Source of the DNA: Trueperaceae bacterium
GTDB lineage: Bacteria > Deinococcota > Deinococci > Deinococcales > Trueperaceae
Length of the DNA: 64,000 nt
NCBI GenBank assembly: GCA_965213925.1
Contig: OZ243927.1
Span: 2,624,001 to 2,688,000, forward strand
Reading direction: 5' to 3'
Shown here piece after piece: positions 44,975-62,982 of the stretch. The translations under genes were made by a program, and so were the position numbers. Below the pieces are notes generated by a model. It worked only from the letters and a program-made list of their open reading frames with translations, was not told the DNA's origin and ran no database searches. The stretch's first letter is position 1. The number at the start of each line of letters is the position of its first letter.

Positions 44975-45002
44975 TTGCGTTTAACGCGCGCGTCTCTCGC
45001 AG
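44975..45002. repeat. 28-bp palindromic module-boundary site, copy A
   Basis: TTGCGTTTAAC GCGCGC GTCTCTCGCAG. Confidence 0.75.
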
Positions 45003-45199
45003 AAGAACGCTACACTTTCGAGCCTTTCCATTATTCCGCAGAGATCAAAGGAACCACAATCTATTGACCGTTCAGTACATATTGTCATAGAAGTTTACTG
45101 CACGAATAGGTCATTCCTCCCAAATTTCTCCTCCCAAATTTCTCCTCCGAAATCTGACGTGCGACAAGCGCTTATCTGTATTCTTACGGCTAAAGTTCT

Positions 45200-45320
45200 G
45201 AACGGACTCTTTCATCTCGTTATCGGGAAGCTCGAGCGCCACCCTCGTTTCGCGTTTGGTGTCGCTAAGAAGCGGTTCCAAATCCTTGAGTTCGGAGCCT
45301 GCCAAGACGCGCATGGTGTT
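45200..45320 (-). pseudogene. Short relic of a solute-binding/VWA-type protein downstream of the TelA-like gene
   Basis: RVLAGSELKDLEPLL resembles the start of such domains; the frame degenerates quickly. Confidence 0.35.
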
Positions 45321-45469
45321 TGTTTCCTATCCGCAGCTCGTTAAAAGTGATGTGAGCGCGAGAGTTAGAAAGAAGGCGTTGCACTGTATCTTCTGAAAGG
45401 ACAGGGAAAAGGGAGAGGCGGCAACGCTTTTTCTCCCTATCCCCCTTACCCTCATCTCTCTGTCAAACC

Positions 45470-46200
45470 TTAAAGCCTAAGTTCGTTATCCGCTGCGTTG
45501 TCTGGAACCTCGAGCGTCAAATCCGCTGTCGCCCCCGCCACCTGCTCATTGCGTACCCGGTCCAGATACGTCTTCGACTTGCCAATCTCCGCTTCGAGCG
45601 TGTCTACGGTTTGCTGCATCACGCCTAGAGCTGCCTGCTTGTATTCAGAAATCGCGTCCACCGCTGCGTAAACATTATTGAAAGCCTTCTGGAGTTGCTC
45701 GACATCCACGGTCGCTCCAGCCGCCTGCGTATGTACGCTCGAGGATTGCTTTCTCAAGAGCGCCGAGGTGGACGCGATGAGATTGCCTGTAGTCGCGTTA
45801 AGCGCGTCTATCTGGTCCAAGACGAGCTTCTGATTTGCCAGTCCCTGCGAGACCATGACCGCCGTGCGCAGCGCCGACACCGTCGTGGTCGAGGCGCGGT
45901 CCACACCCTTGATGAGTTCTAAGTTGTTCTTGCGGACCATGTCGAGCGCTAGATAGCCCTGAATAGAGACGGCGAGCTGCGTCTGTAAGTCCTGCACTTT
46001 CTGCCGCAAGTAAAAGAGCATCTCCTCTTCAACCACGCGGGCTTTTTCGGGCTCGGTGCGCTTGAGTTTGTCCGCACGTGCTAAGAGCGCTTCGTCCACT
46101 TTCCGCGCCAGATAGATATACGACTCCAACTTCTCCATCGCTTCCCACAAATTGACCTTCTCCTGCTCGATAGTCGCGTTGTCCTTGCGCAGCTCGTCTT
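45470..46200 (-). pseudogene. Toxic anion resistance protein (TelA-like), 5'-truncated
   Basis: QDELRKDNATIEQEK...NNLELIKGVDRASTTTVSALRTAV; fused abruptly to the RT gene at about 46200. Confidence 0.75.
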
Positions 46201-47941
46201 GCTGCCGGTTAAAAGGGTGTATCGCCTACTCTACCGGCCTGACCTCTACCTGCGCGCCTACGCCAAGCTCTACAAGAACGAAGGCGCACTGACACCAGGT
46301 GCCTCGGACGAAACCGTGGACGGGATGTCCCTAGCGAAAATTGATACCATCATCGAGGCGCTACGCCAAGAGCGGTATCGGTGGACGCCGGTACGACGCC
46401 GTTACATTCCCAAAAAGAATGGCAAGATGCGGCCTCTAGGGATGCCTTCCTGGTCGGACAAACTTCTTCAAGAAGTTATCCGCTCCATCCTGGAAGCCTA
46501 TTATGAACCGCGGTTCAGCGACCGTTCTCACGGCTTTCGACCGAAACGGGGATGCCACACAGCTTTGCGCAAAGTCACCCAAGAGGGTCGAGGTACAAAG
46601 TGGTTTATCGAGGGAGATATCTGCTCGTGTTTCGACAAGATTAACTTCGATGTCTTGTTGAACATCTTGCAGAAGAGCTTCCACGACAACCGCTTCCTGC
46701 GGCTTATCAAGGGGCTGCTCGAAGCTGGCTACCTGGAGAACTGGACCTTTCACCAGACCTACAGCGGTGTGCCGCAAGGGTCGATTGTCGGTCCAATCCT
46801 CACCAACCTGGTTCTGGACAGGCTGGACAAGTTTGTCGAGCACGAACTGATACCAGCTTACACACGCGGCGAACGCCGCAAGACCTACCCCCCGTATGTC
46901 GCCATCGCCAAAGCCGCTCACGACGCTCGGAAAGCAGGGAACTGGGAGACCGCGCGGCAACTGAGCCAGCAGGCCCAGACAATGCCGTCGCGCGACCCCG
47001 ATGACCCGAACTTCCGGCGATTGTGGTACCAAAGGTATGCCGATGACTTTCTGCTGGGGCTGAAAGGGCCAAAAGACGAGGCCGTGGCTATCAAGCAAGA
47101 GATTGCCGCCTTCTTACGCGACGAACTCAAGCTTGAGCTTAGCGAGGATAAGACCCTGCTGACCCACGCGCGCACGCAGAAAGCGCGTTTCCTGGGCTAT
47201 GAGGTCCACATTCTTCACGCTGACGATAAACACGACCACCGGGGACAACGCTGCATCAACGGCAGCGTCGGACTCCGGGTACCGTCGCACGTCATGAAAG
47301 CGCACTGCGCCAAGTACATGCGACGCGGCAAGCCCATTCACCTCCCACAAAGGCTCAGCAGCGATGCTTACAGCATCGTCAGCCAATATCAAGCGGAATA
47401 CCGCGGGGTCGTGCAGTATTACCGCATGGCCTACAACCTCCACACGCTGGGCCGACTCAAGCGCGTCACAGAACTCTCGCTAGTGAAAACGCTGGCGAAT
47501 AAGTTCAGGACGAGTTGCCAGAAAATCTATCGGCGCTACCGCACCACCATCGACCTCAAGGAGGGCAGCTATAAAGTCCTTCAAGTCAAAGTGGACCGTG
47601 GTCCTAAAAAGAAGCCACTCATCACCCACTTTGGCGGCATCCCGTTACGGTGGAACAAATGGGTAGCCTTGGACGACAACCAGAACAGTAAGATTTGGAA
47701 CGGGCGTAATGAAGTGGTGGACCGCCTTTTAGCGCAAAGCTGTGAGCTTTGTGGGTCGGTGGAGCACGTCGAAGTGCATCACGTCCGAAAACTGGCAGAC
47801 CTTGAACAAAGAGGGCGTAAGTCACGGCCCGAATGGATGCAAAGGATGTCGGCTCGCCGACGCAAGACGCTGGTGGTCTGCCTCACCTGCCACCAAGACA
47901 TCCATAAAGGGCACTACCACGGGAAAGGACTTTCATGTTGA
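46201..47941 (+). CDS. Group II intron reverse transcriptase/maturase with HNH domain; start lost
   Basis: RPLGMP, SHGFRP, EGDI..CFD, GVPQG, YADD; C-terminal CELCG...VEVHH...CLTCH. Confidence 0.93.
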
Positions 47942-47951
47942 GATTACTGGA

Positions 47952-48048
47952 GAGCCCCGTGACACGGAAAGCGGTCATGCGGGGTTCGGAGGGGGGATGT
48001 TGGAAAAGCGCTATCTTTGATAGGCAGCTCGCTGGCATCCTACCCTAC
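47952..48048 (+). ncRNA. Group II intron domains V-VI (3' end of the RT-encoding intron)
   Basis: GAGCCCCGTGAC-ACGGAAAGCG-GTCATGCGGGGTTC with AGC triad, followed by domain VI ending CCCTAC. Confidence 0.9.
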
Positions 48049-48103
48049 CGCACGCACGGCTCTTAGGGGGGAGGAAGGCAGCGATGTCTTCTTCCTACCC
48101 GAC
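48049..48103 (+). ncRNA. 3' half of domain V plus domain VI of a second (outer) group II intron
   Basis: CGCACGCACGGCTCTTAGGGGGGAGGAAGGCAGCGATGTCTTCTTCCTACCCGAC directly after the first intron end. Confidence 0.8.
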
Positions 48104-48176
48104 CTGTTGCACAGCGGCACATCGCTGAGCAACATATTTTATAGTGATTCGGATTACGTTCTCCTATACTCAGGTT

Positions 48177-49985
48177 ATGCCTCGCCTCATCGTCATCTCA
48201 TTTTTACTTTGTAGCTTTCTCGTGGGTTGCTCGAGCACCACGCCACTTTCACCACCAGGTGAAACGCCCCCTGTGACTGAGCCTAACCCAACTACCCCTA
48301 CCGAACCGACTTCACCTGAAACGCCCGCGCCCGAACCAACACCCACCACCCTTACGCCTGAAGAAGCTGACCGCATCGCCCTGACGCTCTGGCGCAACGA
48401 TGACCTCGGCAAACATCCCAAGGGCTCCTGCTCAGGCTGTCACGGCGCGGACTACTTTGATCTCGCCCGCATTGGCTCGGCGGATGAGGATATCGCTCGG
48501 CGAGCGGTGATCGACGGAGCGAGTCAACGAGAGGCGGACGCGCTTGTGCAAGCAGTCGGGCAGATGCGCCAAACGTACGGGCTAGTCGCAGACGACGCCC
48601 GCGCCTTTCGCCCCTTTCAACCGGGCGGCGAGGTGCTGCTGCCTAATCTTGACGACGCTGAGCACATCGTTTCGGTGGAGCGAGATATCGCTTTTGGTCA
48701 CCAGCTAGAAGCTCTCTTGCCAACCCTCTTCGGCGAACGTATCGCCTCACTAGCGGACGCAGAACGGGCGCGTGACGAACTCTTGGACCTCGCCCAAGGA
48801 GCTAACCAGGCGGGCGCGAACTCCCAGCGTATTCAACTTAGGGAGTTGCCTACCGGCATCACCTACCCACGCTGGTCAGCCGATCTGCACCACGGCGCAG
48901 ACGAGGGCACGCTCAACGATTGGCTTGCCGATGTCGCGCACGACGCCAAGCCGGAGCACCGCGAGGCGTGGTTGGGGCTGCAAGACGCCTACCTTGCAAC
49001 CCCTAGCGACGAGAACTTCTGGCGCATGTATCTCGCCGCTGAGGAGATGACCGCGACGCCCCTTTTCGGTGAGTGCACCATGACGGGGGGAAGGGCGCAT
49101 ATAGCCTGTGCGGACGTTAAGCGCTTTGCTCGAGAGAAATTCTTGAGCGCGTTGACGGGTCAGCACATGATGCGCTTAGAGGCGTCCGGGCGTGAGGGTT
49201 TTGCGGAGGGCGCACTAGCCTTTTCATACCTCGACACCGACCCCCGCTTCGACTTCATGAAGGAGCGTAAGAGCCGCACGCTTTTGCCCGCCAACCTCTG
49301 GGAAGTGGGCGACAAGGGGCGGAGCACCTTAGAAAATTCTCAGGCTGAGGGCAGTTTTCGCGAGAACTTAGCGAAGCTCGGCTATCCTGAGTTTGTGCAA
49401 GGCAGCATCGACCCCACACGCAGCGCGAGCCAGGAACAACATGAGTTACGCCTCGCCTGGTTCTGGTTAGGCTTCACCTTCGACCCCTCCTTTGCCCGTA
49501 TTCACAGCTCCAACGCCACCAAAGTGGGTGAGTATATGGTGGGAACGCTCCTCGATGAGCGGATGTTCATTCACAATACCTTTCACACCAACATGCGGCT
49601 GGTGACTAAGGGGTTTTTACCAGAAGCGAACAGAGAACAGGCAGGGCGCGAGCGCACTCTGGAACAGCTGCCCACCGTTTTTCGCATGAACTACGGTTAC
49701 TTTTGGGCTTACGGGCGCACGGTGCTCAATTGGCGGGAGAACAAAAAGCTTAACTTCGTTTACCCCGAAGACCTCAAAGCGGAGCAAGCCGACCTCTGGC
49801 ACCGCTTTACGGCGAACGGCTTTCGGATGAGCATGTTTCTTTACTTGGCGGCATTAGAAGAGGGCGCACCTAAAGACAGCGTTGCTTTTGACGCCCTAAC
49901 GACGCACTTTGAGACCTACGAACCTGAGCATCAAGAAGCAGACAATGCGCTGATGGCGCAGCTTAGGCGTAAGCTGGAGGAGTAG
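48177..49985 (+). CDS. Hypothetical lipoprotein with a single CxxCH heme-c motif
   Basis: LVGC lipobox, Pro/Thr linker, CSGCH. Confidence 0.7.
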   Translation: MPRLIVISFLLCSFLVGCSSTTPLSPPGETPPVTEPNPTTPTEPTSPETPAPEPTPTTLTPEEADRIALTLWRNDDLGKHPKGSCSGCHGADYFDLARIGSADEDIARRAVIDGASQREADALVQAVGQMRQTYGLVADDARAFRPFQPGGEVLLPNLDDAEHIVSVERDIAFGHQLEALLPTLFGERIASLADAERARDELLDLAQGANQAGANSQRIQLRELPTGITYPRWSADLHHGADEGTLNDWLADVAHDAKPEHREAWLGLQDAYLATPSDENFWRMYLAAEEMTATPLFGECTMTGGRAHIACADVKRFAREKFLSALTGQHMMRLEASGREGFAEGALAFSYLDTDPRFDFMKERKSRTLLPANLWEVGDKGRSTLENSQAEGSFRENLAKLGYPEFVQGSIDPTRSASQEQHELRLAWFWLGFTFDPSFARIHSSNATKVGEYMVGTLLDERMFIHNTFHTNMRLVTKGFLPEANREQAGRERTLEQLPTVFRMNYGYFWAYGRTVLNWRENKKLNFVYPEDLKAEQADLWHRFTANGFRMSMFLYLAALEEGAPKDSVAFDALTTHFETYEPEHQEADNALMAQLRRKLEE

Positions 49986-50062
49986 CAAGCTGTCGTCGCC
50001 TTGCTCAGCGCTTTTAGCCTGACCTTTATACAACAAACTAGGTCGAAACTTGCGTAAGCGCA

Positions 50063-50090
50063 ATGCAACAGACGCGCGCGTTCGTCGCAG
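50063..50090. repeat. 28-bp palindromic site, copy B
   Basis: ATGCAACAGAC GCGCGC GTTCGTCGCAG. Confidence 0.85.
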
Positions 50091-50227
50091 AAGCGCTGAA
50101 TCTGCTTCCACTTGTCTGTCAGCGTGTCTACAGTGTTCCCTTACGCCCCTCTGACATAGGCTTGCTAGGGTCACTTCAGCTACCGGTAGCTAGACTGACA
50201 CTCAATGACGCAGTGAGGAGAGGGTTT

Positions 50228-51859
50228 ATGCTACCTATAAAAGAGTTGTTATTCGCCAGCTTATTAGCGCTTACGGTTGGACAGGCACAAGAGACCGGAG
50301 GCGCTGAAACGGGCGGTGCCCAGGCATCAGGGCAGAGCGTTTCGGGCGTCGTCTACAACGATCTAAACGAGAACCGGCAGCGCGACGAAGGCGAAGCGGG
50401 GGTCGCAGGCGTGTCAGTCTCGAACGGGCTCGAGGTGGTGCAAACAGACGATAGCGGTCGCTATGAACTGTCCGCTCGTGACGAGATGATCATGTTCGTC
50501 ACCAAACCCGCTGGCTACATGGTCCCGGTGAACGAGGTGATGCTGCCGCAGTTCTACTACATCCACCAGCCTAACGGCACGCCCGAAGACTTAGACCTCG
50601 ACTTTGACGGCATCGAGCCGACAGGTCCGCTGCCTGACTCGGTAGACTTTCCGCTGCAAGCGTCCGAGCTGGATGAGTCGTTTGAGGCACTCGCCTTCGC
50701 CGACCCACAGCCCCGCGACGACACCGAACTCGACTACATCCGTGACGACGTAATTACGGAAATCGTTGGTACGGACGCCGCTTTCGGCATCACCGTCGGC
50801 GACATCATGTACGACGACCTGTCCCTGTTCGAGCGCTATAACGAAGTCGTTGCAGCGATCGGTATCCCCTTCTGGAACGTGCCGGGCAACCACGACCTGA
50901 ACTTCCAGTCCCCGGACGACGCTTACTCGCTCGAGACTTACAAGCGCATCTATGGACCCGCCTACTACTCGTTTGACTATGGGCAGGTGCACGTCGTGGT
51001 GATGGACAACGTCGAGTACTTCGGGGTGGAGGACGGCGAGTCGAGCGGCTACCGCGGCTACATCGGCGGAGCGCAGCTCTCTTGGCTCGAGAACGACCTG
51101 CGCTTCGTCCCGGAGGACAAGCTCATCGTCTTAGCCATGCACATCCCCCTGATCGACCAAGGGCGCGAAGACAGCGCCGGCGTCAACACCGCCGACCGCG
51201 AGGCGCTCTTCGAGGTCTTGGCGGGGCGCGAGCGGGTGCTCTCCATCTCGGGCCACGTCCACGCCAAGACCGAGCACAGTTACTTCGGCGAAGCAGACGG
51301 CTTTCAAGCGCCCAACCCGCTGCATCACATCACCCTGACGACCCTCTCGGGCGTCTGGTGGGGCGGGCCTGAGGACGAGCGCGGCATCCCCATCACCACC
51401 ACTCGTGACGGGCTGCCGAACGGTCATCACGTCCTCTCCTTTGAGGGCAACGCCTACCGCGAGCGGCTCAAGGGGGCGGGCGAAGCCGCCGACTATCAGA
51501 TGAACATCAGCGTCGCCCAGGCGCAGCAGGACGGCAACACCCTCGACCCCGCGCAGTGGTCCGGACCGCAAGTCGTCGCCAACGTCTTTAACGGCAGCGA
51601 GCTTTCCAGCGTCCGCTATCAGATCGACGGGAGCAAGATGCGGACGATGGAGCGCACCCTGCGCGGCGACCCCTACGTCAGCGAGCTGCAGGAGCGTTTC
51701 CCCGAGGAGATGCCCGGTCCTATCGACTCGTCGCACATCTGGACCGCACCCCTGCCGGACGACCTAGCGCCCGGCGTGCACCGGGTCCGCGTAGAAACGA
51801 CCGACCAGTACGCTCAGACCTTCCGGGCGACGCGCGTCTTCGAGGTCGCCGGGGAGTAG
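50228..51859 (+). CDS. Secreted calcineurin-like metallophosphoesterase
   Basis: Signal peptide; ADPQ, GDIMYD, PGNHD, HIP and SGHVH motifs. Confidence 0.9.
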   Translation: MLPIKELLFASLLALTVGQAQETGGAETGGAQASGQSVSGVVYNDLNENRQRDEGEAGVAGVSVSNGLEVVQTDDSGRYELSARDEMIMFVTKPAGYMVPVNEVMLPQFYYIHQPNGTPEDLDLDFDGIEPTGPLPDSVDFPLQASELDESFEALAFADPQPRDDTELDYIRDDVITEIVGTDAAFGITVGDIMYDDLSLFERYNEVVAAIGIPFWNVPGNHDLNFQSPDDAYSLETYKRIYGPAYYSFDYGQVHVVVMDNVEYFGVEDGESSGYRGYIGGAQLSWLENDLRFVPEDKLIVLAMHIPLIDQGREDSAGVNTADREALFEVLAGRERVLSISGHVHAKTEHSYFGEADGFQAPNPLHHITLTTLSGVWWGGPEDERGIPITTTRDGLPNGHHVLSFEGNAYRERLKGAGEAADYQMNISVAQAQQDGNTLDPAQWSGPQVVANVFNGSELSSVRYQIDGSKMRTMERTLRGDPYVSELQERFPEEMPGPIDSSHIWTAPLPDDLAPGVHRVRVETTDQYAQTFRATRVFEVAGE

Positions 51860-51891
51860 GGACAAACAGAGGCGTTCTGTCTGAATCAGGT

Positions 51892-51926
51892 GAACAGGAG
51901 CGGTCTACTATGAACCGCTCCTGTTC
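51892..51926. terminator. Hairpin after the phosphoesterase
   Basis: GAACAGGAGCGGT...ACCGCTCCTGTTC IR; no clear U-tract. Confidence 0.5.
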
Positions 51927-51978
51927 GCTCGGACTGAACATTTGTATAGAGGGGCACAGGAACGGAACCTATCTTTTT

Positions 51979-52006
51979 CTGCAACGAACGCGCGCGTTCG
52001 CCGCAG
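51979..52006. repeat. 28-bp palindromic site, copy C
   Basis: CTGCAACGAAC GCGCGC GTTCGCCGCAG. Confidence 0.9.
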
Positions 52007-52076
52007 AAGCTAACTGGGCTTTCCTACTACAAAACCCAGCTTATCTCTCGACTAACGCGATGACTTTCGGTGGCGA

Positions 52077-53471
52077 TCAAAGCGAAAAGAGTTGCCACCA
52101 GAACGCCCACGGCACGAACAGCATCGCCCCGCCCATCAAGAGGGCGAGCCAGACGCGCTCAACTCCCTGTACCGACTGCCGCCCCCGGTACCAGGTGGCT
52201 GTAAGTAGAACCGCCGTTAGCAAAAGTGCGAAAGCAAGAAGCTGGAGGAGGAACCAGCCGACTGGACGCCCTGCGATGACCGAGGTCACGCCTTCGCCGG
52301 ATGTCGCAGCGACATACCCCGTATAGGCGTACACGCCCCAAGGGGTGACTAGACCGAGCACAGTGAGAACCCAGGTACTCCACCTGCCTGGCATCCGCTG
52401 CGGCTTGGCGCGGCGAAGATACCTGACACCCGCTGCGACGAGGTACCCGCCAAAGACAAGCTGAAACAAGGCGAAGAAGGCGAGCTGCACCTGCCACCGG
52501 GCGAAGCCCTGCACATCCGTCACCGAAGGTCGGGTAGGGTGCCCGTCCGCTGGCGACGCGTCCAAGTGCGGTCCCGGTGGCGCGTCGGCGGTAACGTTCC
52601 GAAGCCATGAGGTCATCGTCTCGACGTAACCCGGGGCGAGCGCGCCGGTCACCTGGTCTTCAGCGACCGCGCTCGCGTCGTGGCTGGCGTCAGAAATAAA
52701 GCGCAGGACGTAGTGCCGATGACCTCCCCGCGCCAACGCTCGCCGCATAACACGGGCACTTTTGGCGGCAGGCATGACGCGATCCAGGGAACCCCAGAGG
52801 GCGAGGACAGGCTGACGGAGCTGCTCGAGAACGGGCGCGGGGTCGTATGTCCCTTCAGCAAAGAGCTCGGCCGAGATGAGGAAACGGTAGGTATGGTCCG
52901 CAAGAGCCCGCAGGCTCCCCTCTGAGGTGACGCCCTGCCGACGGAGCGCGCCCTCCGTCGCCCAAGCGCTCTGCTCTGCAGGCCCTACCCCCCCGCCTGC
53001 GACGGTGATCACGAACGCGATGTCGGTGGAGCGTGTGGCGGCTAGTGGCGCGACCCAGCCGCCTTCACTCAGACCCCACAAGCCGACCTGAGCGGGATTC
53101 ACCTCGTCACGCTGCTGCAGCATCTGCACGGCGGCGACAGCGTCGTCGGCTAGAAGAGAATACGAGCGGTCGCCTGCAGGGTTGGCGCTGTAGCCTTGGG
53201 TGCGCTTGTCGTAAAGCAGGGTGAGGAACCCCTCTCTTGCCAGGGCTTCAGCTACAGGGCGGTTCTCGTCACGCTTTCCAGGACCCGCCCCGTGAACGAG
53301 CACGACCGCCGGGACCCTGCCGCTCTGTTCGGGGATCAGCATTGTGCCGTGCAGCCTCACGTCACCGCTTTCGAAACTCAGCGCCTCTTCCGTCGCAGCC
53401 TGGGCGTGAGCGCCCGCCGCCGCAAGCCAGCAACTGAGGAGCAGCAACATCGTGAACACACAAAAGCGCAT
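52077..53471 (-). CDS. Alpha/beta hydrolase with signal peptide and C-terminal TM helices
   Basis: VHGAG, YDKR, GLSEGG nucleophile elbow. Confidence 0.85.
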   Translation of the reverse strand: MRFCVFTMLLLLSCWLAAAGAHAQAATEEALSFESGDVRLHGTMLIPEQSGRVPAVVLVHGAGPGKRDENRPVAEALAREGFLTLLYDKRTQGYSANPAGDRSYSLLADDAVAAVQMLQQRDEVNPAQVGLWGLSEGGWVAPLAATRSTDIAFVITVAGGGVGPAEQSAWATEGALRRQGVTSEGSLRALADHTYRFLISAELFAEGTYDPAPVLEQLRQPVLALWGSLDRVMPAAKSARVMRRALARGGHRHYVLRFISDASHDASAVAEDQVTGALAPGYVETMTSWLRNVTADAPPGPHLDASPADGHPTRPSVTDVQGFARWQVQLAFFALFQLVFGGYLVAAGVRYLRRAKPQRMPGRWSTWVLTVLGLVTPWGVYAYTGYVAATSGEGVTSVIAGRPVGWFLLQLLAFALLLTAVLLTATWYRGRQSVQGVERVWLALLMGGAMLFVPWAFWWQLFSL

Positions 53472-53664
53472 AAATTTAGCTGTCCCGATGACGACCCAAG
53501 CTTCGGTCGTTACGGCGTGAACCGTTCGAGGGCGAGGGTACAAAGACTGGTGAGTGCGTCATCATGCGACCTCATCCCTAGCGTAGCCCAGCAGCGCCAC
53601 AAACCGCATGTGCTTAAAGTCATGCACTCTCTACTATCTTGACGTCTAGCTGCTTTGCGGCGTT

Positions 53665-53692
53665 GTGCAAAAGACGCGCGCGTTCGTCGCAC
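53665..53692. repeat. 28-bp palindromic site, copy D
   Basis: GTGCAAAAGAC GCGCGC GTTCGTCGCAC. Confidence 0.88.
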
Positions 53693-53748
53693 AAAGTTTA
53701 AGCTTCAGAAGGCTTATGAAGTGACCTAAAAGTTCTAGGAAGTGGGCA

Positions 53749-54276
53749 TCACCCGAGAGCTTCCAGGCTTTTGCGCGCATTCCCCGCTACCGACTTCCGC
53801 TCATCTTCCCTCAGGCGTATCAGGTGGGGTCGGAGCCACGCTTTGAGGCTTTCGTCCTCCTTAGCCCATTGGGTCAAGGTTTTCATCGTGTTATTTAGCA
53901 CGATCCAATCCGTATGGGTCGCAAGCGTATGTTTAAGATGGTCGGTAGCCTGTGAGCGTTGCTTAGCTGTCATGCGGTCGCTCAACATGCCGAATAGGAG
54001 GGCGAGCGTCCACTGAGTGGAGGCTTGATCGATCTGCGCGATCTCTTCTAAAAGCCGGTCGAGGTAGGGCTCTGACCACTCGGGGTGCGCGAGGGTCACG
54101 CGCTTGACGGCGTTCGACGTCCTCAGCCGCACGATCTCGTCAGCGCTGAAGTAACATCGGTATAGCTCCTCAAGTCGCGTCCTATCGCTCAGCACGATCT
54201 CCACAACTTCGAGAGTACGCCCCAGAGAGTTGGGATGTCCTCCGGTGAGCATGGATTCGAATGTTTCTTCCGCCAT
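53749..54276 (-). CDS. Hypothetical HEAT-repeat-like protein
   Basis: GGHPNSLGRT...VRLRTSNA...DWIVLN...RKSVA; all-helical character. Confidence 0.65.
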   Translation of the reverse strand: MAEETFESMLTGGHPNSLGRTLEVVEIVLSDRTRLEELYRCYFSADEIVRLRTSNAVKRVTLAHPEWSEPYLDRLLEEIAQIDQASTQWTLALLFGMLSDRMTAKQRSQATDHLKHTLATHTDWIVLNNTMKTLTQWAKEDESLKAWLRPHLIRLREDERKSVAGNARKSLEALG

Positions 54277-54469
54277 CGCTAGCCCTGAATGTAGCACGCT
54301 CTTCTACCCGCGTTGACTCGGTCGAAAACTCTAGCTTGATAGCGGAGACGGTCGCAAACCGCCGGGCAAAGCCCGCTATACGGTGTCTCGCGAGCTTTTC
54401 GCTTGCCAAACCCGTGACAGAAGTGAGGCGCTTTGTGGCAGATCGCTGCTGTGGGAAAGAGTTGCCACT

Positions 54470-54497
54470 GTGCGGCAGACGCGCGCAACTCTTGCAC
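54470..54497. repeat. 28-bp palindromic site, copy E
   Basis: GTGCGGCAGAC GCGCGC AACTCTTGCAC. Confidence 0.85.
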
Positions 54498-54532
54498 AAA
54501 ACCAGAGCAACACGTCGTTATAAACTGCTTAC

Positions 54533-54985
54533 TCATTCCTTCGCCCGCTCAACAAGCGCTGCAATCCTCTCCTCGAAGCTGAAAGAGCCGAGCGGCTCGA
54601 CCTCGACTTGACGAAAGTCCGGATGGTCGGGGTTGAGAAGCACATTAAAGCTTTCAGGTGCGACCACTGAGGGAACGCGCAGAGCAACGCTTCTCGCTTC
54701 GCGCACCCAGGTGTCACCGTAGGACCGCGTCTGAACTCGGTCATTGATCCCGAGGTCGTCAGGCGCATTCTCGAGAAGAGTCTCATCGAAGGTACAGCGG
54801 TAAAGGTTATAACCCTGTAGGCTGGCGTAGACCTCCCAACCGGCTAGAATCTCTAGTGCAGCTAGAGCAGCGTGCTCCGCTGTATACACCATAACCGTGC
54901 CCTCGCTATTCCAACGCCCTGGTGCGCCGCGTGGTCTGAACGCCGCACTCAAACTGTTCGTAAAAGCTAAGCGGTAGACCTTCAA
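54533..54985 (-). CDS. RES-domain toxin
   Basis: GRWN...VYTAEH.ALAALE...VPSVV...NVLLNPDHP. Confidence 0.9.
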   Translation of the reverse strand: MKVYRLAFTNSLSAAFRPRGAPGRWNSEGTVMVYTAEHAALAALEILAGWEVYASLQGYNLYRCTFDETLLENAPDDLGINDRVQTRSYGDTWVREARSVALRVPSVVAPESFNVLLNPDHPDFRQVEVEPLGSFSFEERIAALVERAKE

Positions 54986-55425
54986 AGAAAAGTGCCGTCC
55001 TCCAGCGCGGTAAGCATGTTTTGAAGCTTGCTGACCCCGACGCGCGTAGCCAGCAAGTCGATAGGTCTAGCTCCGTCTAGGGCAGCCTTAGGGCTCCCGA
55101 ACCAAGCTTTCGCCCCCTCCTGTCCGAGAATGCTCGCGACCCGTGCAAACAGGGTAAGCGCACTGTAGGTACGGTCTAAAAGCTCGACGCTCATATCTGG
55201 GTTCTTACTCTTGCGCGAGCGGCTGATGCCGAGCACAGCGAGTGCTTCGGTTTTGCTGATATCAAGCAGGGAAGTCAAACGTCTTAGAACCTGCTCGAGG
55301 GAGGACTCGCCAACGACAGTTTGCTTGAGCACGGCCTCAGCTACCTCGTTCGGCGTAGTGTCGAGTACCTGTTCAAACAGTGCCTCGCGGGTAGAAGCAA
55401 AGGAAGTCTGTATCACGTTCAACAT
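54982..55425 (-). CDS. Xre/MbcA/ParS-type antitoxin
   Basis: AWFGSPKAALDGARPIDLL...LEDGTF C-terminus; overlaps the RES toxin. Confidence 0.88.
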   Translation of the reverse strand: MLNVIQTSFASTREALFEQVLDTTPNEVAEAVLKQTVVGESSLEQVLRRLTSLLDISKTEALAVLGISRSRKSKNPDMSVELLDRTYSALTLFARVASILGQEGAKAWFGSPKAALDGARPIDLLATRVGVSKLQNMLTALEDGTFL

Positions 55426-55454
55426 AGTAGCATGAAACTTCAACGTTTAGCGCT

Positions 55455-55482
55455 CTGCAGGAGTTGCGCGCAACCGCCGCAG
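55455..55482. repeat. 28-bp palindromic site, copy F
   Basis: CTGCAGGAGTT GCGCGC AACCGCCGCAG. Confidence 0.85.
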
Positions 55483-55657
55483 AAGGTTCTACGCGAACTA
55501 CTACTTCTATTAACTTGCGCTCCCTGCTCCACACCTCCTTTAACACAGGCGAGCCGTAGAGGTGCATGGTCGGCGATCACTAGGCTACCGAAGCTCTGCG
55601 AATTGCGCTTAAGCGTTAAAATGTCTTTACCTTAAAGAGCACAGAAAGGGCAGCGCT

Positions 55658-57082
55658 ATGAAGATTCGGTGGTTATATTCTATATTCGGTGTGCCCCTGG
55701 TCGTTCTCCTCTTGGGTGCCTTTGGCATCTCTCTTCAGGCGGGCTCAGAAACCGCAAATCCGCAAGCCCCGAACACTAAGCACGATCTGGGACGCGGCGT
55801 CAACTTCGGCAATGCGCTCGAGGCTCCGAGCGAAGGGCTCTGGGGTCTGACGCTCAAGTCAGCCTACTTCGAGGTGGTTAAGCGCGCGGGCTTCGACACG
55901 GTGCGACTCCCCGTCAGTTGGACACACCACGCCGCAACGACTTCGCCCTACGCCATCGATCCGGACTTTTTTAGGCGCGTCGACTGGGCGGTGGACGAGG
56001 CGCTGAAACGAGGCCTCAACATCATTATCAACATGCACCACTACGACGCGCTCAATTCGAACCCGCGCGAGGAGGGGGGGCGCTACCTCGCGCTCTGGCG
56101 GCAGATCGCCGAGCGCTACAAACACGAGAACGCCCTTGTCTATTTCGAGCTGCTCAACGAACCCCACGAGCAGTTCAACCGCGAACCCGAACTGTGGAAC
56201 GACTTGCTCGCGAAAGCGGTCGAGGTCGTGCGCGAGAGCAACCCGACGCGCCCGCTCATCATCGGTCCGGTAGGTTGGAACACGACCTCACGCTTGGACG
56301 AGCTCACGCTGCCCGACGACTCTAACCTCATCGCTACGATTCACTTCTACGAGCCCTTCGAGTTTACCCATCAGGGCGCGGCCTGGGTGACAACGCCGCC
56401 GCCTGCGGGGGTGAGTTGGACGGGCGAAGAGAGGATGCTGGTCTGGGACGATTGGTCTTGGGATACCCGCGTAAGGTGGCGCGCCTCCGAAGGGGACCAG
56501 CCAGCGCTCATGCTGACCTTCGAGAAACCCTGGGCAGGCTTCAAGCTCCACCCGGCTAAACCCGAAGAGGGCTACGACACCCTACATCTACGTGCTAACG
56601 GCGCTTTGGAGCTTCTCATTGGTTGTGAGCACGGGCTCCGGACGATTGTCACGCGCGTCGGCTGGCACGACTACTTGGTCGACTTAAGCACCTGCGAGGA
56701 GATAGGCAACCTTGTCATCCAGAACGCCAGCGATCAAGCGCCCGCCTCCATCTACATCCAGACATTAGAGCTTCGCGGCAGGAACGGCGAGCTTCCCCTC
56801 ATTATGACGAGCAAGGACGTGCTGAGAGAAACGCTCGACAGGGCAGCGGGTTGGGCTGCGGCGCGAGACATCCCTCTTCTACTAGGCGAATTCGGCGCGT
56901 ACAGCGTGGCGGACATGAGCTCGAGGGTGCGCTGGACGCGCTTCGTACGTGAGGAAGCAGAGCGTCGCGGCTTCGCCTGGGCCTACTGGGAGTTCGGAGC
57001 GGGTTACGGCGTTTACAGCCCTGAAACGGACCAGTGGCGCACGCGTCTGCTAGAAGCGTTGTTACCCCGCCTGACGCGCTAA
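55658..57082 (+). CDS. Glycoside hydrolase family 5 (endoglucanase-like)
   Basis: RGVNFGNALE, VRLPV, ELLNEP, HFYEP, GEFG, WAYW. Confidence 0.93.
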   Translation: MKIRWLYSIFGVPLVVLLLGAFGISLQAGSETANPQAPNTKHDLGRGVNFGNALEAPSEGLWGLTLKSAYFEVVKRAGFDTVRLPVSWTHHAATTSPYAIDPDFFRRVDWAVDEALKRGLNIIINMHHYDALNSNPREEGGRYLALWRQIAERYKHENALVYFELLNEPHEQFNREPELWNDLLAKAVEVVRESNPTRPLIIGPVGWNTTSRLDELTLPDDSNLIATIHFYEPFEFTHQGAAWVTTPPPAGVSWTGEERMLVWDDWSWDTRVRWRASEGDQPALMLTFEKPWAGFKLHPAKPEEGYDTLHLRANGALELLIGCEHGLRTIVTRVGWHDYLVDLSTCEEIGNLVIQNASDQAPASIYIQTLELRGRNGELPLIMTSKDVLRETLDRAAGWAAARDIPLLLGEFGAYSVADMSSRVRWTRFVREEAERRGFAWAYWEFGAGYGVYSPETDQWRTRLLEALLPRLTR

Positions 57083-57106
57083 AGCTAGGCAAGAGTCTTG
57101 TGCCTT

Positions 57107-57134
57107 GTGCAACGAACGCGCGCGTTCGCCGCCT
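57107..57134. repeat. 28-bp palindromic site, copy G
   Basis: GTGCAACGAAC GCGCGC GTTCGCCGCCT. Confidence 0.85.
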
Positions 57135-57313
57135 AAAACTTGGGTCACCCTCGGTCCGTAGTTCAACCTAAAACCTCTTGCCGAAATGGACGTCAAGGAG
57201 AGTTCGGAGGGCGGCGCAGATTATTTGCCGCGCGGAGAAAAGAAGCGGCGTCACAGGGTGTAAGCCCAAAGAACATAGGAGCATTCACAGCCTTGAACGC
57301 TTGCACTGTCGGT

Positions 57314-58291
57314 TCAGCCTTTCTCGAGGACCCAGTCGAGGAGCGCCTCCAAGTTTGCTGTTGCTAAACCGACGACCCGGTCAGCGCCTCCGTAGTAGAG
57401 GTAAATTGCCCCGTTTACGACGGGATTACCTGTGCCGAAGACTACAAAGGGTACGTCGCCCTTGATCTCCCACATTTCTTTGGGCGCTAGAATAGGCGCT
57501 TCGGGCCGCTTGAGCACCTTACGAGGATCATCTCGGTCAAGTAGGGCGGCCCCCATACAGTAGATATGATGTTCGTTGTAGCCGTGATAGAGCACGAGCC
57601 AACCCACTTCAGTGAGAATAGGGGGACCCCCCGCACCAACACGTTTGCCGTCCCAAAGACCAGGGCGCGGCGTTAGGATTTCCGCGTGCTCACGCCAGCT
57701 TTTCATGTCATGACTTGACGCCAGCCAAATGCTGGGGGGGCGGCGGTGAAAGGTGACGAATTTGCCGCCCACCTTAGCGGGAAAGAGCGCGTGGTCCTTG
57801 TTGTCTTCACCTTCGACCACTGGCCCTAAAGTTTCCCAAGTGATGAGGTTGTCGCTCACAGCGTACATAGGGGTGATCCCTGAAGGAGGTGCGCCGACCG
57901 GCGCATGAAATCCCTTGCGACTATAGGCGGTGTAGGCCATGTAGAAGCGCCCCTCTAATTCGGTGACGCGGGGGTCTTCTACCCCCCTCGCATCCCGCTC
58001 CGAGCTTGGCGCTAGAACGGAGTGTCGCAACCGGTTCCAGGTCACGCCGTCCGAGGACACGGCGTAACCGATACGGGAAACGTAGTCGAGTCCTTGCGCC
58101 CGGTAGTGCATGTGAAAGAGGCCGTTATAATAGATTACCGAGGGATTAAAGGTATTGAGCGCTTCCCAAGGGTGGATAGGCTCGGGTCTCAAGACGGGGT
58201 TGGCGGGATGGCGCTGGAAATGACCACTTTCGGCTAGATGGTAGAAATCAGAGACTGAGTTTAGATTGGCTGAGGCGGGGTTAGAGGTCAT
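57314..58291 (-). CDS. GH130-family glycosidase/phosphorylase
   Basis: NPVL, FNPS, YRAQ, EDPRV, NKD, YYGGAD. Confidence 0.88.
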   Translation of the reverse strand: MTSNPASANLNSVSDFYHLAESGHFQRHPANPVLRPEPIHPWEALNTFNPSVIYYNGLFHMHYRAQGLDYVSRIGYAVSSDGVTWNRLRHSVLAPSSERDARGVEDPRVTELEGRFYMAYTAYSRKGFHAPVGAPPSGITPMYAVSDNLITWETLGPVVEGEDNKDHALFPAKVGGKFVTFHRRPPSIWLASSHDMKSWREHAEILTPRPGLWDGKRVGAGGPPILTEVGWLVLYHGYNEHHIYCMGAALLDRDDPRKVLKRPEAPILAPKEMWEIKGDVPFVVFGTGNPVVNGAIYLYYGGADRVVGLATANLEALLDWVLEKG

Positions 58292-58483
58292 AAGGGCTCC
58301 AGAAAGGTAGGATGAGGTCGGTAGCTACTATGTTGGCGCACATAGCGGATGCGCAGGCGACTTAATATGGGAGCTGCACGACCTAATTGTAACGACTTTT
58401 TAGCAACACGCCTTTTCTGAAGTTTGAATCGACTATGCTTGACCTTTACGTCAAGAACCAGGTTGAGGAATACATAAGACATT

Positions 58484-58498
58484 CTGCAACGAACGCGC
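58484..58498. repeat. Truncated site, copy H (left arm plus GCGC)
   Basis: CTGCAACGAAC GCGC, identical to the copy C left arm; right arm absent. Confidence 0.7.
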
Positions 58499-58907
58499 TG
58501 AAAATACGTGCGAATGAGGCCAAGCCAGCCTAAAGGATGCCGACAAGGTCTACTAAACGTAAGAAATAACGGATGAAAATTCATATTCTACAGACGTATA
58601 ACCGAGTCGCACCTGCGACTCGGTTATACGTGTAGTTGCTTACCTTACCCGAGCGGATACGAGTACCAATGGACGCTCTCACTGTGCCAACGACAGATGC
58701 AAATGCTGCCTGTATTAGGTCGTGTGCGGCTTGGACGAGCTGCACAGCACGCCCTCGGTCACCGAGCTTACAAACGGCGATCCAACCCGCGCCGCCCGTG
58801 CGTCCCCACGCTGAGGTCAACGTACCCTTCTATTCCTAAGATAGCTTTTAGGGTAGCTAGAGAGTTAGCGAAGAGAACGTTTAAGAAGCCCAAGACGTAA
58901 AGAAAGC

Positions 58908-59875: not shown

Positions 59876-60277
59876 CGCTTTATCGCGCTGTCCATGCACG
59901 AAAAGCCCGAGTACGTTCAGGGCTTTTTAGAAGCGGGCGGGTCAGGCTACGTGCCTAAAAGTGCCGTCGAGACGCAGCTTTTAGATGCGATCGCTGCCGT
60001 ATCACGGGGTGAATACTACGCGCCTGCCAAGCTCCTAGCCGACCTCGCCAAGGAGATGGCGGGACTCGATCCCTACCGCAACGTAAAACTCACCCACAGA
60101 GAGCTAGAGGTCGTCGAGCACATTGCGCACGGGCGAACCCATAAGGAGATCGCCTCGGTTATCGGCATCAGCGAGAAGACGGTCGCGACCTACCGCGAGC
60201 GGGCGGCGGAGAAGCTGGGCTTAAAAACGCGAGCTGAACTCGTGAGGTGGGCGTTAGAGCAGAACATGCTGAGCTGA
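59872..60277 (+). pseudogene. NarL/LuxR response regulator, N-terminus missing
   Basis: IALSMH...GYVPK...LTHRELEV...ISEKTVATYR; upstream sequence is the antisense of the glycosyltransferase. Confidence 0.82.
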
Positions 60278-61118
60278 GGGTCGTCTGACCGTTACAGAGC
60301 GAGAGAATAGGGCACAACGACGCGCCCGGTCCTACGTTTAGCGAGGTCTTCTTTTTTGTTCTCCGCGAGGCCCCACCTCATTCTATCCGCCCCTCTGTAG
60401 GACTTTCTTCCACACCCTCTGTAGGAACAGCGCGGACTTCTTGTCGGTGACGCGCTTTATAAGCTTAGGAGTTACGCGGTTGACTTCAAGTTGTACCAAG
60501 GCTTGGCAAGGTAGTCGTGGATAGCATCACGGACGATATTGTACTTGGCTTGAGGTTCTCCGCATTAAGCGTGCTCGAGTGACGGTATCTTAGCGGAGTG
60601 TTTGGAAAAACTTGCTCGGCTATAAGTTGAGGTTCATACTGAGCTGTGAATCAACTTTTCTCCCTACCGCACTGCGTTACCAAAGAAGTTTACTCAGATA
60701 AAGGCAGCTTTCGCGTGGTTGCTCGTAGCAATCATGAGTGCTTTGTCCTGATTGCGAACGGGTAAGCGACCGGGTTCATAGCCGATATATTCGTGCGCCT
60801 CGTGACCTTCCGCTATGTACACAAGCCGTTCGTCTCCATTTATATGTCCGACGTTTCCGTTGTTTGAACGCCTCATGCGGCAGGTAGACCTTTGCCGAGC
60901 TGCTCCCGCCTCGTGCCAGACGAACTTCTCGACTCATACGGATTCCGTTTAATTCCCTATCACCGAGGCTTTTTCTCGGTGATAGTCCATACACTCCATC
61001 CGTTTCGCGGAGGCGAAAACTACGTAAATCCTTATTCCTATTCGCTACACTCAGATTGATTCGCTATGTTAGCGAATCAATCGGAATCCGTATCACAGAG
61101 GCATAACACGAGGTCGGT

Positions 61119-61760
61119 TTAGCCACGGACGTCGAAATCATAGAGATGCATAAAGGCGTCGAAGCCTTCTCTCACCACCTGTAAGGGATCGTCGAGCATC
61201 TCCAGCCGCGTAGACAGTGCCGCGAGCTGGGCGTAGCGAACGGCAAGGGACTCCGCGTTCGCACCGAGCGTGGTCAGCTCTTCGCTATACGCTGCTAAGT
61301 TCTGCTGAAGCGTGTTGTTCTGCTTAGTCGTCTGTTGATAAAGCACGCGTGTGTGTAGAAGATTACTGAGCCGCAGCAAAAGCTCCTCTGGATCGATGGG
61401 GCGAGACAAGAAGTCGTTCACGCCGGCCTCGAGCGCACGCTGTTTAAGGGAGTCGCGGGTATCTGAGGTGACCATAAGGATTGGCAAGAAGCATTCAGGT
61501 CCTTGCTGTTGCCGGAGCGATATAGTCATCTCTAAACCGTCTTGTCTGGGCATGTGATAGTCAGTAATAACAGCATCGGGTTGACATGCAGTCGTGAAGG
61601 TTAGTACCGACTCCGCATCCATAACGGTTGACACCCGCTGGAAACCCTGCTTGTTAAGGTGAGCCTTGAGCAGGGCTAGATTAGCTAGACTGTCGTCGAC
61701 CAGCAAGATATGACTTTCGAAAATTTTGGTGCGCCGCTCTTTAGTGATCCAAGAATTCAT
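61119..61760 (-). CDS. Response-regulator receiver protein, possibly truncated
   Basis: ILLVDD, TDYHMPRQDG, AGVNDFLSRP, then a coiled coil. Confidence 0.75.
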   Translation of the reverse strand: MNSWITKERRTKIFESHILLVDDSLANLALLKAHLNKQGFQRVSTVMDAESVLTFTTACQPDAVITDYHMPRQDGLEMTISLRQQQGPECFLPILMVTSDTRDSLKQRALEAGVNDFLSRPIDPEELLLRLSNLLHTRVLYQQTTKQNNTLQQNLAAYSEELTTLGANAESLAVRYAQLAALSTRLEMLDDPLQVVREGFDAFMHLYDFDVRG

Positions 61761-62039
61761 GAAGTGTACCCCTAGTGCCCTTTCAGAGCGAGGCTAACCA
61801 CTATGTTGCGCTGCTTTCTATAAAAAGTTAAACATGCTTCTATTGTTAGAAAGTTTATAGCGATTGAGAGTGGTTTTTTTGTAACTCGCGCATAACGACT
61901 AGACGGTATCGCGAGCACCGTTCTTTCAGTTGCTGCAGCTTACGAAGGATCACCCTATCGTCCGCAAAATCTCTTGCTTTAATGACCTTCATAGGAGGTA
62001 GCACGATGTTGGGCAATTTAGCGGTAGAAGCCGAACCTT

Positions 62040-62067
62040 CTGTGCGAGTTGCGCGCGTTCGCTGCAC
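62040..62067. repeat. 28-bp palindromic site, copy I
   Basis: CTGTGCGAGTT GCGCGC GTTCGCTGCAC. Confidence 0.82.
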
Positions 62068-62074
62068 AGCAGTG

Positions 62075-62503
62075 CTACGCGTTAGGCGGGTGCCAGCCCA
62101 CCTCAATCCAGAGCCGCCTCGCTTGCACCAGGGCCTCACGGTTGAGCGTTAAGGCTTCAACTGTTGCCCTGCCGCTCGCTGTCTTACCCGCAATATTCAG
62201 CCCTGTCTCCACCCACTCGAAGTGCTCACGCCATACTTGTTGGCGCGGATGATAGAGCGGGACGAGCTGAGCTGTGTTCGGGTCGGTCGCGGCGACCCGC
62301 TGCCCCTTAGCGAGGTTGCAGTCCCAGCAGGCGAGGCAGAGGTTCGCGGTATCGCTGCTGCCTCCGAGAACCTCTGGGATGATGTGATCCACCATAAAGC
62401 GCATCCCTGCTACCGCTTCCTGGGTTTGACAATAGGCGCAGCGGAAGTTGAAATGCGCCGCCACTTCGCGACGTAGAGCGAGGGATAGCTTGGTTTTCGA
62501 CAC
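62075..62503 (-). CDS. HNH endonuclease
   Basis: CAYC...VDHIIP...GG...NLCLACWDCN..K. Confidence 0.92.
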   Translation of the reverse strand: MSKTKLSLALRREVAAHFNFRCAYCQTQEAVAGMRFMVDHIIPEVLGGSSDTANLCLACWDCNLAKGQRVAATDPNTAQLVPLYHPRQQVWREHFEWVETGLNIAGKTASGRATVEALTLNREALVQARRLWIEVGWHPPNA

Positions 62504-62512
62504 CTATTGAGG

Positions 62513-62908
62513 TTAAGAAGAGGTGAGCAGGCTGTCGACCTCGTGCCCCCGGCGCTTAAGTAGCGCTGCCGCTTCAGCCCGCAAGCGCATCACCTGTTGG
62601 GCGTAGCGCTGTAAGCGCAGCGCTTCGGTAGCTTCCTCGGGCGTGAGACCTTCGCGCTGCCGCCGTTCGACGAGCGCCTGCATCCGTTCGCTCTGCTCGT
62701 CTGCGACACGCTGCTTGGCAACTTGCCACAGTTGAGCGTCGTCTAAAACAGTGAGTTGCTCGAGCTGAACGTCGTTGGGCGTCTCGACCGCGAGCGCTGC
62801 TTCGAGGAGGGCGCGCGCTTCCTCCTCCAAAGAGCGGGCATGGGCGGTTGCGCGCGCTTCTAAAGCAACTTGCGCGTCGGGCGAGAGTTGGAGTTCGAGG
62901 GCGTCCAC
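62513..62908 (-). CDS. Small antitoxin-like protein upstream of the HNH gene
   Basis: ALEARATAHARSLEEEARALL (FitA/RHH-like); 9 bp from the HNH start. Confidence 0.6.
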   Translation of the reverse strand: MDALELQLSPDAQVALEARATAHARSLEEEARALLEAALAVETPNDVQLEQLTVLDDAQLWQVAKQRVADEQSERMQALVERRQREGLTPEEATEALRLQRYAQQVMRLRAEAAALLKRRGHEVDSLLTSS

Positions 62909-62954
62909 AGCTCTAGTTTAGCACGGTGCAAATCTCAAAACTGGCATAAACCTT

Positions 62955-62982
62955 CTGCGCGAGTTGCGCGCGTCTCACGCAC
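62955..62982. repeat. 28-bp palindromic site, copy J
   Basis: CTGCGCGAGTT GCGCGC GTCTCACGCAC. Confidence 0.82.

Follow-up and report, generated by a model that had tools for sequence, protein, structure and literature searches.

Dyad sites bounding gene modules in a Trueperaceae genome: a candidate tyrosine-recombinase cassette system linked to an Xer-like gene

Integrons and the dif modules of Acinetobacter are established systems through which bacteria store and reorder gene cassettes. In the dif modules, which reside on Rep_3/OrfX plasmids and in chromosomal islands, sites made up of two arms and a 6-bp spacer bound modules that change their neighbors, carry diverse cargo including toxin-antitoxin pairs, and are shuffled by inversion and deletion where two sites have the same spacer; the pdif sites have separate XerC and XerD arms, which force C and D modules to alternate, and the enzymes used are those of the host (PMC13141974, PMC12907356). 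Here, we report on a 64,000-nt stretch of DNA (the window) from the 4.58-Mb main contig (C1) of a Trueperaceae bacterium (GCA_965213925.1; OZ243927.1, positions 2,624,001 to 2,688,000), in which gene modules are set apart by copies of a dyad repeat with the core GCGCGC. The sequence data make it likely that a tyrosine-recombinase gene-cassette system with a dedicated 296-aa Xer-like enzyme uses this repeat as its core site; the site differs from those of the established systems, and the enzyme is apparently its own and mobile.

In its workings, the Trueperaceae system is most similar to the dif modules, with which it also shares site-hunting insertion sequences (the IS1202 family at pdif; PMC10132070), yet, judged by their defining features, it belongs to neither the dif modules nor the integrons. 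A test for C/D arm polarity failed for the sites of the source genome, and the main core is palindromic and common to 79 of 90 sites. Sedentary chromosomal integrons and clusters of attC sites lacking integron-integrases (CALINs) resemble it in the arrangement of accessory cassettes in arrays on the chromosome, a dedicated tyrosine recombinase with an adjoining site, toxin-antitoxin cargo, arrays devoid of the enzyme, and group II introns that insert into the site (IIC-attC; PMC3001079, PMC7923331). In contrast to integrons, the source genome encodes no protein above the IntI cut-off, its sites lack hairpin covariation (judged from arm identity only, without an attC covariance model), and gene orientation is mixed; modules frequently come with regulators of their own, the sites form several clusters instead of sharing a single entry site, and the intron appears to pair with the core through a candidate EBS1 (exon-binding site 1).

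The engineered Cre/loxPsym system and its application SCRaMbLE (synthetic chromosome rearrangement and modification by loxP-mediated evolution) likewise employ 13-bp arms, one recombinase, and spacer variants as separate channels, and the palindromic loxPsym spacer renders the outcome independent of orientation; its spacer measures 8 bp and its arms are perfect (PMC10850332). The system described here, by contrast, is natural and has a 6-bp core, degenerate arms, and a candidate enzyme of the Xer-like kind. TnpI/IRS of Tn4430 also combines one tyrosine recombinase with a core dyad and adjoining binding motifs, and these motifs (the direct repeats DR1 and DR2) are described there as accessory only and not as crossover sites (PMC2847244), whereas the second element in our genome is a dyad, occurs at 11 of 86 sites, and appears to be a crossover point itself; no link to a Tn3-family transposase was seen. 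Unlike REP (repetitive extragenic palindromic)/BIME (bacterial interspersed mosaic element)-type repeats, the sites are clustered and lack stem covariation. A literature search, conducted mostly without subscription papers, yielded no account of the site, nor of any cassette system from this family, and the available portion of 10.1101/2022.07.15.500248 did not provide a Deinococcus dif sequence.

Geometry and genomic distribution of the site

A sequence-only reading of the window had described nine full copies of a 28-bp palindrome, with 11-bp arms around an invariant core, and none in the first 44 kb. We built a position weight matrix (PWM) from these nine copies, subsequently refined it, and scored matches in bits. 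All nine copies proved to be present where they had been placed, each with the core GCGCGC, and since they were the only window matches above 3 bits, there is no site in 1-44 kb. The arm-6 bp-arm layout stood; information, however, reaches 13 bp to each side of the core, 2 bp further out than proposed, and the site is thus a 13-6-13 dyad of 32 bp. The outward arm consensus is GTYWSNYGCASAA (13 bp). The arm formula given earlier, (GT/AA)YYNNYGCAS, covers 14 of the 18 window arms, but arms starting with AT and TA occur too.

Scanning of the entire genome with the first matrix yielded 81 matches at 18 bits or more and 92 at 12 bits or more, against 0 and about 5, respectively, in a control of 2 Mb that was simulated with an order-5 Markov model, with the counts scaled to genome size. 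The refined matrix gave 90 matches at 10 bits, with the exact GCGCGC core in 79 of them, and 86 at 14 bits; the genome total is hence taken as 86 sites, where about 2 are expected. Two of them lie on a 16-kb contig and 84 on C1, where 81 fall into seven clusters of 3-25 sites each and three stand singly. The cassette array postulated for window positions 44975..62982 is accordingly real but is one of seven: its nine sites belong to a 14-site cluster (C1 2668975-2711138; 42 kb) that continues past the end of the window. The clustered regions cover about 223 kb (5%) of C1, and 68 of the 83 gaps between neighboring C1 sites are shorter than 10 kb (random mean 14, maximum 26), a distribution at odds with the even scatter that the earlier reading had named as a refutation. 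Cluster edges are formed by full dyads, and half-sites are weakly above chance (10 in the genome versus 5 in a reversed control). No site family with spacer lengths of 5, 7, or 8 bp was found; just two 7-bp variants exist, inside clusters. Three neighboring sites (C1 241181, 242638, and 244721) carry the related variant cores GCACGC, GCATGC (with one additional base), and GCGTGC.

The intergenic placement noted earlier extends to the whole contig. None of the 84 C1 cores lies inside a called gene, although 81% of the bases are called coding (gene positions for these counts came from a simple in-house gene caller). The gene pairs around the C1 sites are tandem in 38, convergent in 32, and divergent in 14 cases, and the flanking gene ends (102 are 3' and 66 are 5') lie at variable distances, which rules out the fixed promoter distance expected of an operator.

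These properties bear on the idea that the repeat serves as a terminator, as an operator for a transcription factor, or as a hairpin of the REP or attC type, with the breakpoints described below arising through loss of accessory genes at intergenic repeats. The palindromic, intergenic character of the repeat would suit such a role, as would the excess of convergent spacers (32 of 84 sites versus 15% of spacers genome-wide) and a slightly raised arm-arm identity within the 71 sites of relatives (8.37 versus 8.05, p=0.04). In the source genome, however, identity between the two arms of one site is 8.20/13 against a permuted value of 8.20 +/- 0.18 (n=69), and a single one of the 69 sites is a perfect palindrome; within-site identity equal to the permuted value speaks for neither hairpin selection nor a C/D-type polarity. 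Both gene ends at variable distances, together with alignment breaks within 16 bp of the site center in both genomes compared and the absence of any retained neighbor, make this the least credible of the explanations that we considered. Inner arms belonging to the same module likewise resemble each other no more closely than do permuted arms (8.14/13 versus 8.21; n=49). The arm data fit a single protein that would recognize each arm in double-stranded form, while exchange at the core would bring arms into new combinations.

The GC skew of the source genome is flat, and the position of the sites relative to phage-type integrases and tRNA genes is mixed, with three of the seven clusters within 40 kb of an integrase. 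The word ACCTCTT occurs in module DNA at 0.44/kb versus 1.31/kb in the rest of C1, which suggests a later arrival of the modules.

Module joints and a second core

To locate breakpoints, we compared the array regions of two sister genomes of the same genus (G001 and G002) with the source genome. Many alignments stop within 16 bp of a site center in both, and window modules that end at sites are found in both relatives: 50064-52008 (95% identity, G001), 48104-50094 (86%, G002), and 54469-55485 (98%, G002). Forty-three of 165 half-sites in the relatives share their inner flank with a source half-site; none of the resulting 48 pairs shows related DNA past the site. The outer neighbor was kept at 0 of 55 site halves but at 1048 of 1374 non-site positions in a separate control (16 loci). 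Across the shared ends, identity is high inside the site and at background outside; the inner arms match at 9.7/13 and the outer arms at 7.4/13. Synteny breakpoints hence coincide with the site, as a cassette-shuffling platform had been predicted to produce, and the neighbor's orientation (5' versus 3' gene end) switched in 14 of 31 callable pairs, in keeping with the suggestion that a palindromic core permits both orientations.

Duplicates within the source genome tell the same story. C1 896492-897345 and 3462440-3461587 are 100% identical, with both ends in cores, and two further duplicates with 99.9-100% identity (875011-876785 and the HNH module of the window) are core-ended at one end. 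Contigs from an independent study begin at window position 50074 or run into other DNA at 50071, and they end at 50029; X4 and X5 represent one sample, possibly the source itself, and were left out of this support. We are confident that modules have been cut and rejoined at this core in both orientations, from genome to genome as well as inside one genome.

The arms also occur around other cores. An arms-only pattern and PWM search of 637 kb chosen around known matches returned 63 dyads of all cores versus 2 in the reversed control, and in three other genera the same arms flank the cores GGCCCG, GGGCCG, or GAGCGC. An initial finding of "no arrays" in G143, made with a narrow pattern that gave 1-2 matches per genome, was overturned by the variant-core dyads from this search. 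In the source genome, 12 second-class dyads lie 35-36 bp from 11 of the 86 sites, all pointing away from them (control mean 0.05). In G005, an 881-bp duplicate (99.7% identity) has a GCGCGC core at one end and a GGCCCG core at the other, and its outer arms differ; in G001, the window's lipoprotein module stops at an intact GGCCCG dyad that stands alone, and it borders a different neighbor there. Pairs of this kind, whose outer flanks differ, number just four; the sequence comparisons indicate that the GGCCCG dyad, too, marks crossovers. The core may thus set two channels, one symmetric and one directional; this second class had escaped the sequence-only reading. A 6.3-kb duplicate between second-class dyads in G143 is part of a 17.8-kb duplication and was discarded as evidence of crossover.

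A tyrosine recombinase gene linked to the site

No cognate recombinase had been evident in the window, and a single one had been expected. The genome contains ten PF00589 matches, and the best two lie inside site clusters outside the window. Both genes (C1 3232342-3233229 and 883792-884679) encode a 296-aa protein with R-K-H-R-H-Y catalytic motifs and a two-domain Xer fold; it remains below the cut-offs of XerC, XerD, XerA, and IntI (TIGR02249: 111.8 bits versus a cut-off of 265). A core lies about 80 bp ahead of the gene start, and downstream come a toxin-antitoxin pair and then another site; all seven copies in four genomes lie between two sites. A dyad is positioned 77-109 bp upstream of the start codon at 10 of 11 recombinase loci in seven genomes (77-82 bp in eight), and this position is kept in four genera, including those with changed cores. 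The dyad beside the gene is of the same kind as those between modules, with no distinct attI. A sigma-70 promoter over this upstream site was not found.

The occurrence of the gene follows that of the site. Among 41 relatives, full-length matches with at least 87% identity are present in exactly the four genomes that have at least eight strict sites. Among 128 genomes of the family, the enzyme is encoded in seven, all with dyads (in G143 these are of the variant-core type); such a distribution identifies it as not housekeeping. The strict site pattern occurs in 10 of the 128, of which six have the enzyme as well, two (G054 and G055) have sites only, and two show chance-like matches. Single strict matches in G017 and G082 were taken as chance, and locus L001 gave no PWM match. 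Across 364 genomes of the phylum, the enzyme is confined to the source's family, where its copies form one clade (support 100/100). The nearest named relatives are integrases of Alicyclobacillus and Sulfobacillus (about 53-54% identity); further relatives (P0043-P0060) reach 55-60%, and plasmid-borne ones about 40% at most. No match to the GCGCGC site at 10 bits was found in 160 loci of mostly 30-40% identical relatives (genomes and metagenomes) or in 48 viral loci, and viral contigs gave 0 matches to the site pattern. The G141 recombinase groups with copies of other genera and not with that of G143 from its own genus, which may point to transfer.

A hairpin over the ribosome-binding site is present in 10 of 10 aligned recombinase leaders (e.g., L007 1462-1503 and nine others), pairing ACCTCC with the GGAGGT ribosome-binding site, and compensatory changes occur at 2 of its 10 pairs. 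It is a possible translational brake.

Several observations weigh against a dedicated, active cassette system. Across 17 near-identical module ends, arm positions 3-7 vary 5-8 times each, positions 1-2 once each, and positions 8-10 are conserved; this turnover draws on a small set of words and is variation that plain core exchange does not predict. The HNH duplicate of the window shares the outer arm as well at one end. No module circle or empty site was present among the contigs examined. Homologues of the window's RES-Xre pair in other genera (three loci) have no site within 1.5 kb, and the same is true for one of two GH130 (glycoside hydrolase family 130) loci. Dyads without an enzyme match exist in G054 and G055 (both 98% complete), in G142 (99%), and in G140 (91%, 380 contigs). 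Genomes with enzyme and sites are close kin (four genera), and co-occurrence is consequently not a set of independent events. Finally, damage is seen in both source-genome copies: codon 4 is a stop in one, and in the other the LGH motif has Asp where 40 of 40 clade proteins having this motif keep Gly. The sole G002 copy is frameshifted before the catalytic Tyr; in total, lesions affect 5 of 11 copies, and 6 of 11 are without visible lesion.

Some of these points would be accommodated if the sites recombined through a host or other recombinase, as pdif does through XerC/XerD, with the 296-aa gene as mere cargo: sites without enzyme occur in four genomes, and both source copies are lesioned though 100% identical duplicates imply recent moves. 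Such a role for a host or other recombinase is nevertheless improbable in view of the fixed upstream position of the dyad in four genera, changed cores included, and of the strict site pattern being limited to 10 of 128 family genomes. Moreover, four of the ten PF00589 proteins of the genome were tested, and none exceeds the cut-offs of XerC, XerD, XerA, or XerS; the other Xer-sized recombinase does not track the sites, having no match in the two sister genomes at E 1e-40. It is quite likely, as judged from this linkage, that the cassette-borne 296-aa recombinase drives the cutting and rejoining of the modules.

On this dedicated-enzyme reading, the recombinase would act as a homotetramer on double-stranded sites, each offering two interchangeable 13-bp arms around a 6-bp overlap, and every module carries one arm per end. 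Since the recombinase gene is itself a cassette, the machinery would spread with the modules, and since GCGCGC is its own reverse complement, any two sites could give excision, integration, or inversion. The same arms would read the GGCCCG/GGGCCG core in a directional manner, and the 35-bp piece between GGCCCG and GCGCGC sites would connect these channels. The leader hairpin and the frequent gene lesions probably keep activity at a low level, which would fit a system that is held down because many symmetric chromosomal sites are dangerous.

In its fullest form, this reading sees a natural counterpart of loxPsym/SCRaMbLE, in which one cassette-borne recombinase, passed between genera, performs non-directional shuffling of dozens of modules next to a directional GGCCCG channel joined by 35-bp double sites, with introns and insertion sequences specialized on the site; we regard arguments for and against this wider picture as evenly balanced. 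If true, it would rank with integrons and dif modules as a gene-cassette platform of a third kind, and genome engineering could draw from it a new recombinase whose sites are non-directional and orthogonal. The system bears on whether dozens of non-directional chromosomal sites are tolerated by a bacterium and how they would be restrained, on whether one enzyme separates two spacer channels, and on whether site-hunting by introns and insertion sequences arose independently once more.

Introns, insertion elements, and module cargo

The genome contains four copies of a reverse transcriptase (RT)-encoding group II intron (window 46202-48103; C1 290593-293226, 3429451-3432743, and 3474239-3477531), each nested in domain V of a host intron. 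At all four host-intron 3' ends, an arm-like remnant follows directly, and the 5' exon of the two full-length host introns reads left arm-GCGCGC-GT, so that the host intron enters 2 nt past the core. The partial site copy reported at 48104 is therefore the outer 11 nt of a right arm, an intron scar not recognized as such before; the other partial copy, at 58484, is a half-site of the weakly overrepresented kind. Host introns differ in domain VI between copies. Their RNA contains ACGCGC in a hairpin loop and GTTAGT upstream of it, which, going by group II anatomy, are candidates for EBS1 and EBS2, respectively, pairing with the site exon. The candidate EBS1 ACGCGC matches the invariant site core.

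An IS630-type element (a helix-turn-helix (HTH) domain and a weak DDE_3 match; copies at C1 3228876-3230211 and 3235962-3237297) and its miniature inverted-repeat transposable elements (MITEs; ~100 bp, with TGG...CCA ends) abut the outer ends of arms. TGG, with which the inverted repeat of the element begins, directly follows 17 of 172 genome arms (about 2 expected), and the elements apparently duplicate TTNT rather than TA. Arm-like sequences lie 107 bp from the sites at C1 3417355, 3463928, and 871665, at the far end of MITE insertions.

This clustering of IS630-type elements and MITEs at the sites could be taken to mean that the modules themselves are non-autonomous transposons, with the arms as terminal inverted repeats and GCGCGC as a target duplication, stacked into one another's ends by a DDE transposase. 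A G002 module with the variant core GTGCGC at both ends would agree with this. Full dyads at the cluster edges and the paucity of half-sites do not, nor does the IS630 element, located outside the arm and equipped with TGG ends of its own; as it is a tyrosine recombinase and not a transposase that is tied to the site, we consider a transposon origin of the modules very unlikely. The G002 module in question (L306, cores at 1502 and 2487, in the same direction) is a RES-Xre module 98% identical to that of the window; its matching ends are, as a single case, as expected if only matching cores recombine.

Most gene labels of the sequence-only reading held in the window (Table 1), namely phosphoesterase, hydrolase, RES-Xre, GH5 (glycoside hydrolase family 5), GH130, and HNH plus partner. 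The supposed HEAT-like protein remains a lead from Atlas clusters, in which 12-35% of the members carry HEAT_2, and the "heme lipoprotein" has one CxxCH but no Pfam or NCBIfam match. An open reading frame (ORF) is opened by an ATG at 50063; the gene caller places the start of the phosphoesterase at 50246. The claim of exactly one site at each boundary of a 1-2 gene unit does not extend to 57107-62040, which holds GH130 plus gene fragments.

Table 1. Sites, mobile elements, and module genes in the window (positions are those of the 64,000-nt stretch; RHH, ribbon-helix-helix).
Feature	Position	Strand	Remarks
MITE-like remnant, about 100 bp	44871..44972	.	Abuts left-arm outer end of first site; flanked by TTGT and TTTT
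Site	44973..45004	.	Core GCGCGC 44986-44991; G002 homology stops here
Partial TelA (toxic anion resistance) module	45031..46201	-	100% identical to C1 3484507-3485677; fused to mid intron element
5'-truncated group II intron with RT/maturase/HNH ORF	46202..48048	+	Nested in host intron domain V
Host group II intron, 3' end	48049..48103	+	Intron inserted 2 nt past site core
Remnant right arm of intron-split site	48104..48114	.	Intact site in G002 L297
CxxCH-bearing putative lipoprotein (cargo)	48273..49985	+	Module shared with G002 (86%) and G001 (83%)
Degenerate second-class dyad	50026..50057	-	Core GACCTA (class consensus GGCCCG); 35 bp from 50063 site
Site	50061..50092	.	PWM, breakpoints, contig breaks
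Calcineurin-like phosphoesterase (cargo)	50246..51859	+	Module 50064-52008 95% identical in G001, other neighbors at both ends
Site	51977..52008	.	PWM, breakpoints
Alpha/beta hydrolase (cargo)	52077..53543	-	Family match
Site	53663..53694	.	PWM
Small protein without Pfam match, possibly HEAT-repeat (cargo)	53749..54297	-	Lead from Atlas clusters
Site	54468..54499	.	PWM, shared module end
Xre/MbcA antitoxin and RES toxin (cargo)	54533..55443	-	Module 54469-55485 98% identical in G002, site-bounded there
Site	55453..55484	.	PWM
GH5 glycoside hydrolase (cargo)	55658..57082	+	Family match
Site	57105..57136	.	PWM
GH130 phosphorylase (cargo)	57314..58291	-	Family match
Half-site, weak	58482..58498	.	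Left arm and GCGC, without right arm; 23.6 bits
Site	62038..62069	.	PWM, duplicate end
FitA-like RHH and HNH proteins (cargo)	62075..62908	-	62036-62971 100% identical to C1 211322-212257, inverted
Site	62953..62984	.	PWM; cluster goes on beyond window

For modules no longer than 5.1 kb outside the window, we surveyed 110 of the 123 called genes. The cargo comprises oxidoreductases and hydrolases with MarR, TetR, HxlR, or ArsR regulators, as well as GGDEF/EAL proteins, transporters, and RES-Xre, PIN, HNH, and Fic genes; 16 of the 110 scanned genes gave no match. Each module holds one accessory gene or a few; frequent combinations are an enzyme together with its own regulator and toxin-antitoxin pairs.

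Some further features of the window deserve mention. At 58908-60277, frameshifted glycosyltransferase fragments (-) overlap an ORF (+) with a C-terminal LuxR domain, an arrangement that looks like a deletion junction, and a repeat of ~160 bp at about 60930-61098, with many copies in G001 and G002 and a high contig depth, is probably a MITE. The genes at 24732-32722 have no adjoining site here but are located between two sites in G001 (L242), and modules may hence lose or gain sites. A 396-aa phage-type tyrosine integrase is encoded at 5513-6703, about 11 kb from a tRNA-Val gene, and the 1.2 kb that follow it recur with 99.9% identity at C1 823957-825189, located 700 bp from a site. Short repeats of a CTCAGTC unit, both direct and inverted, are present at 26274-26304, 30328-30399, and 40580-40659.

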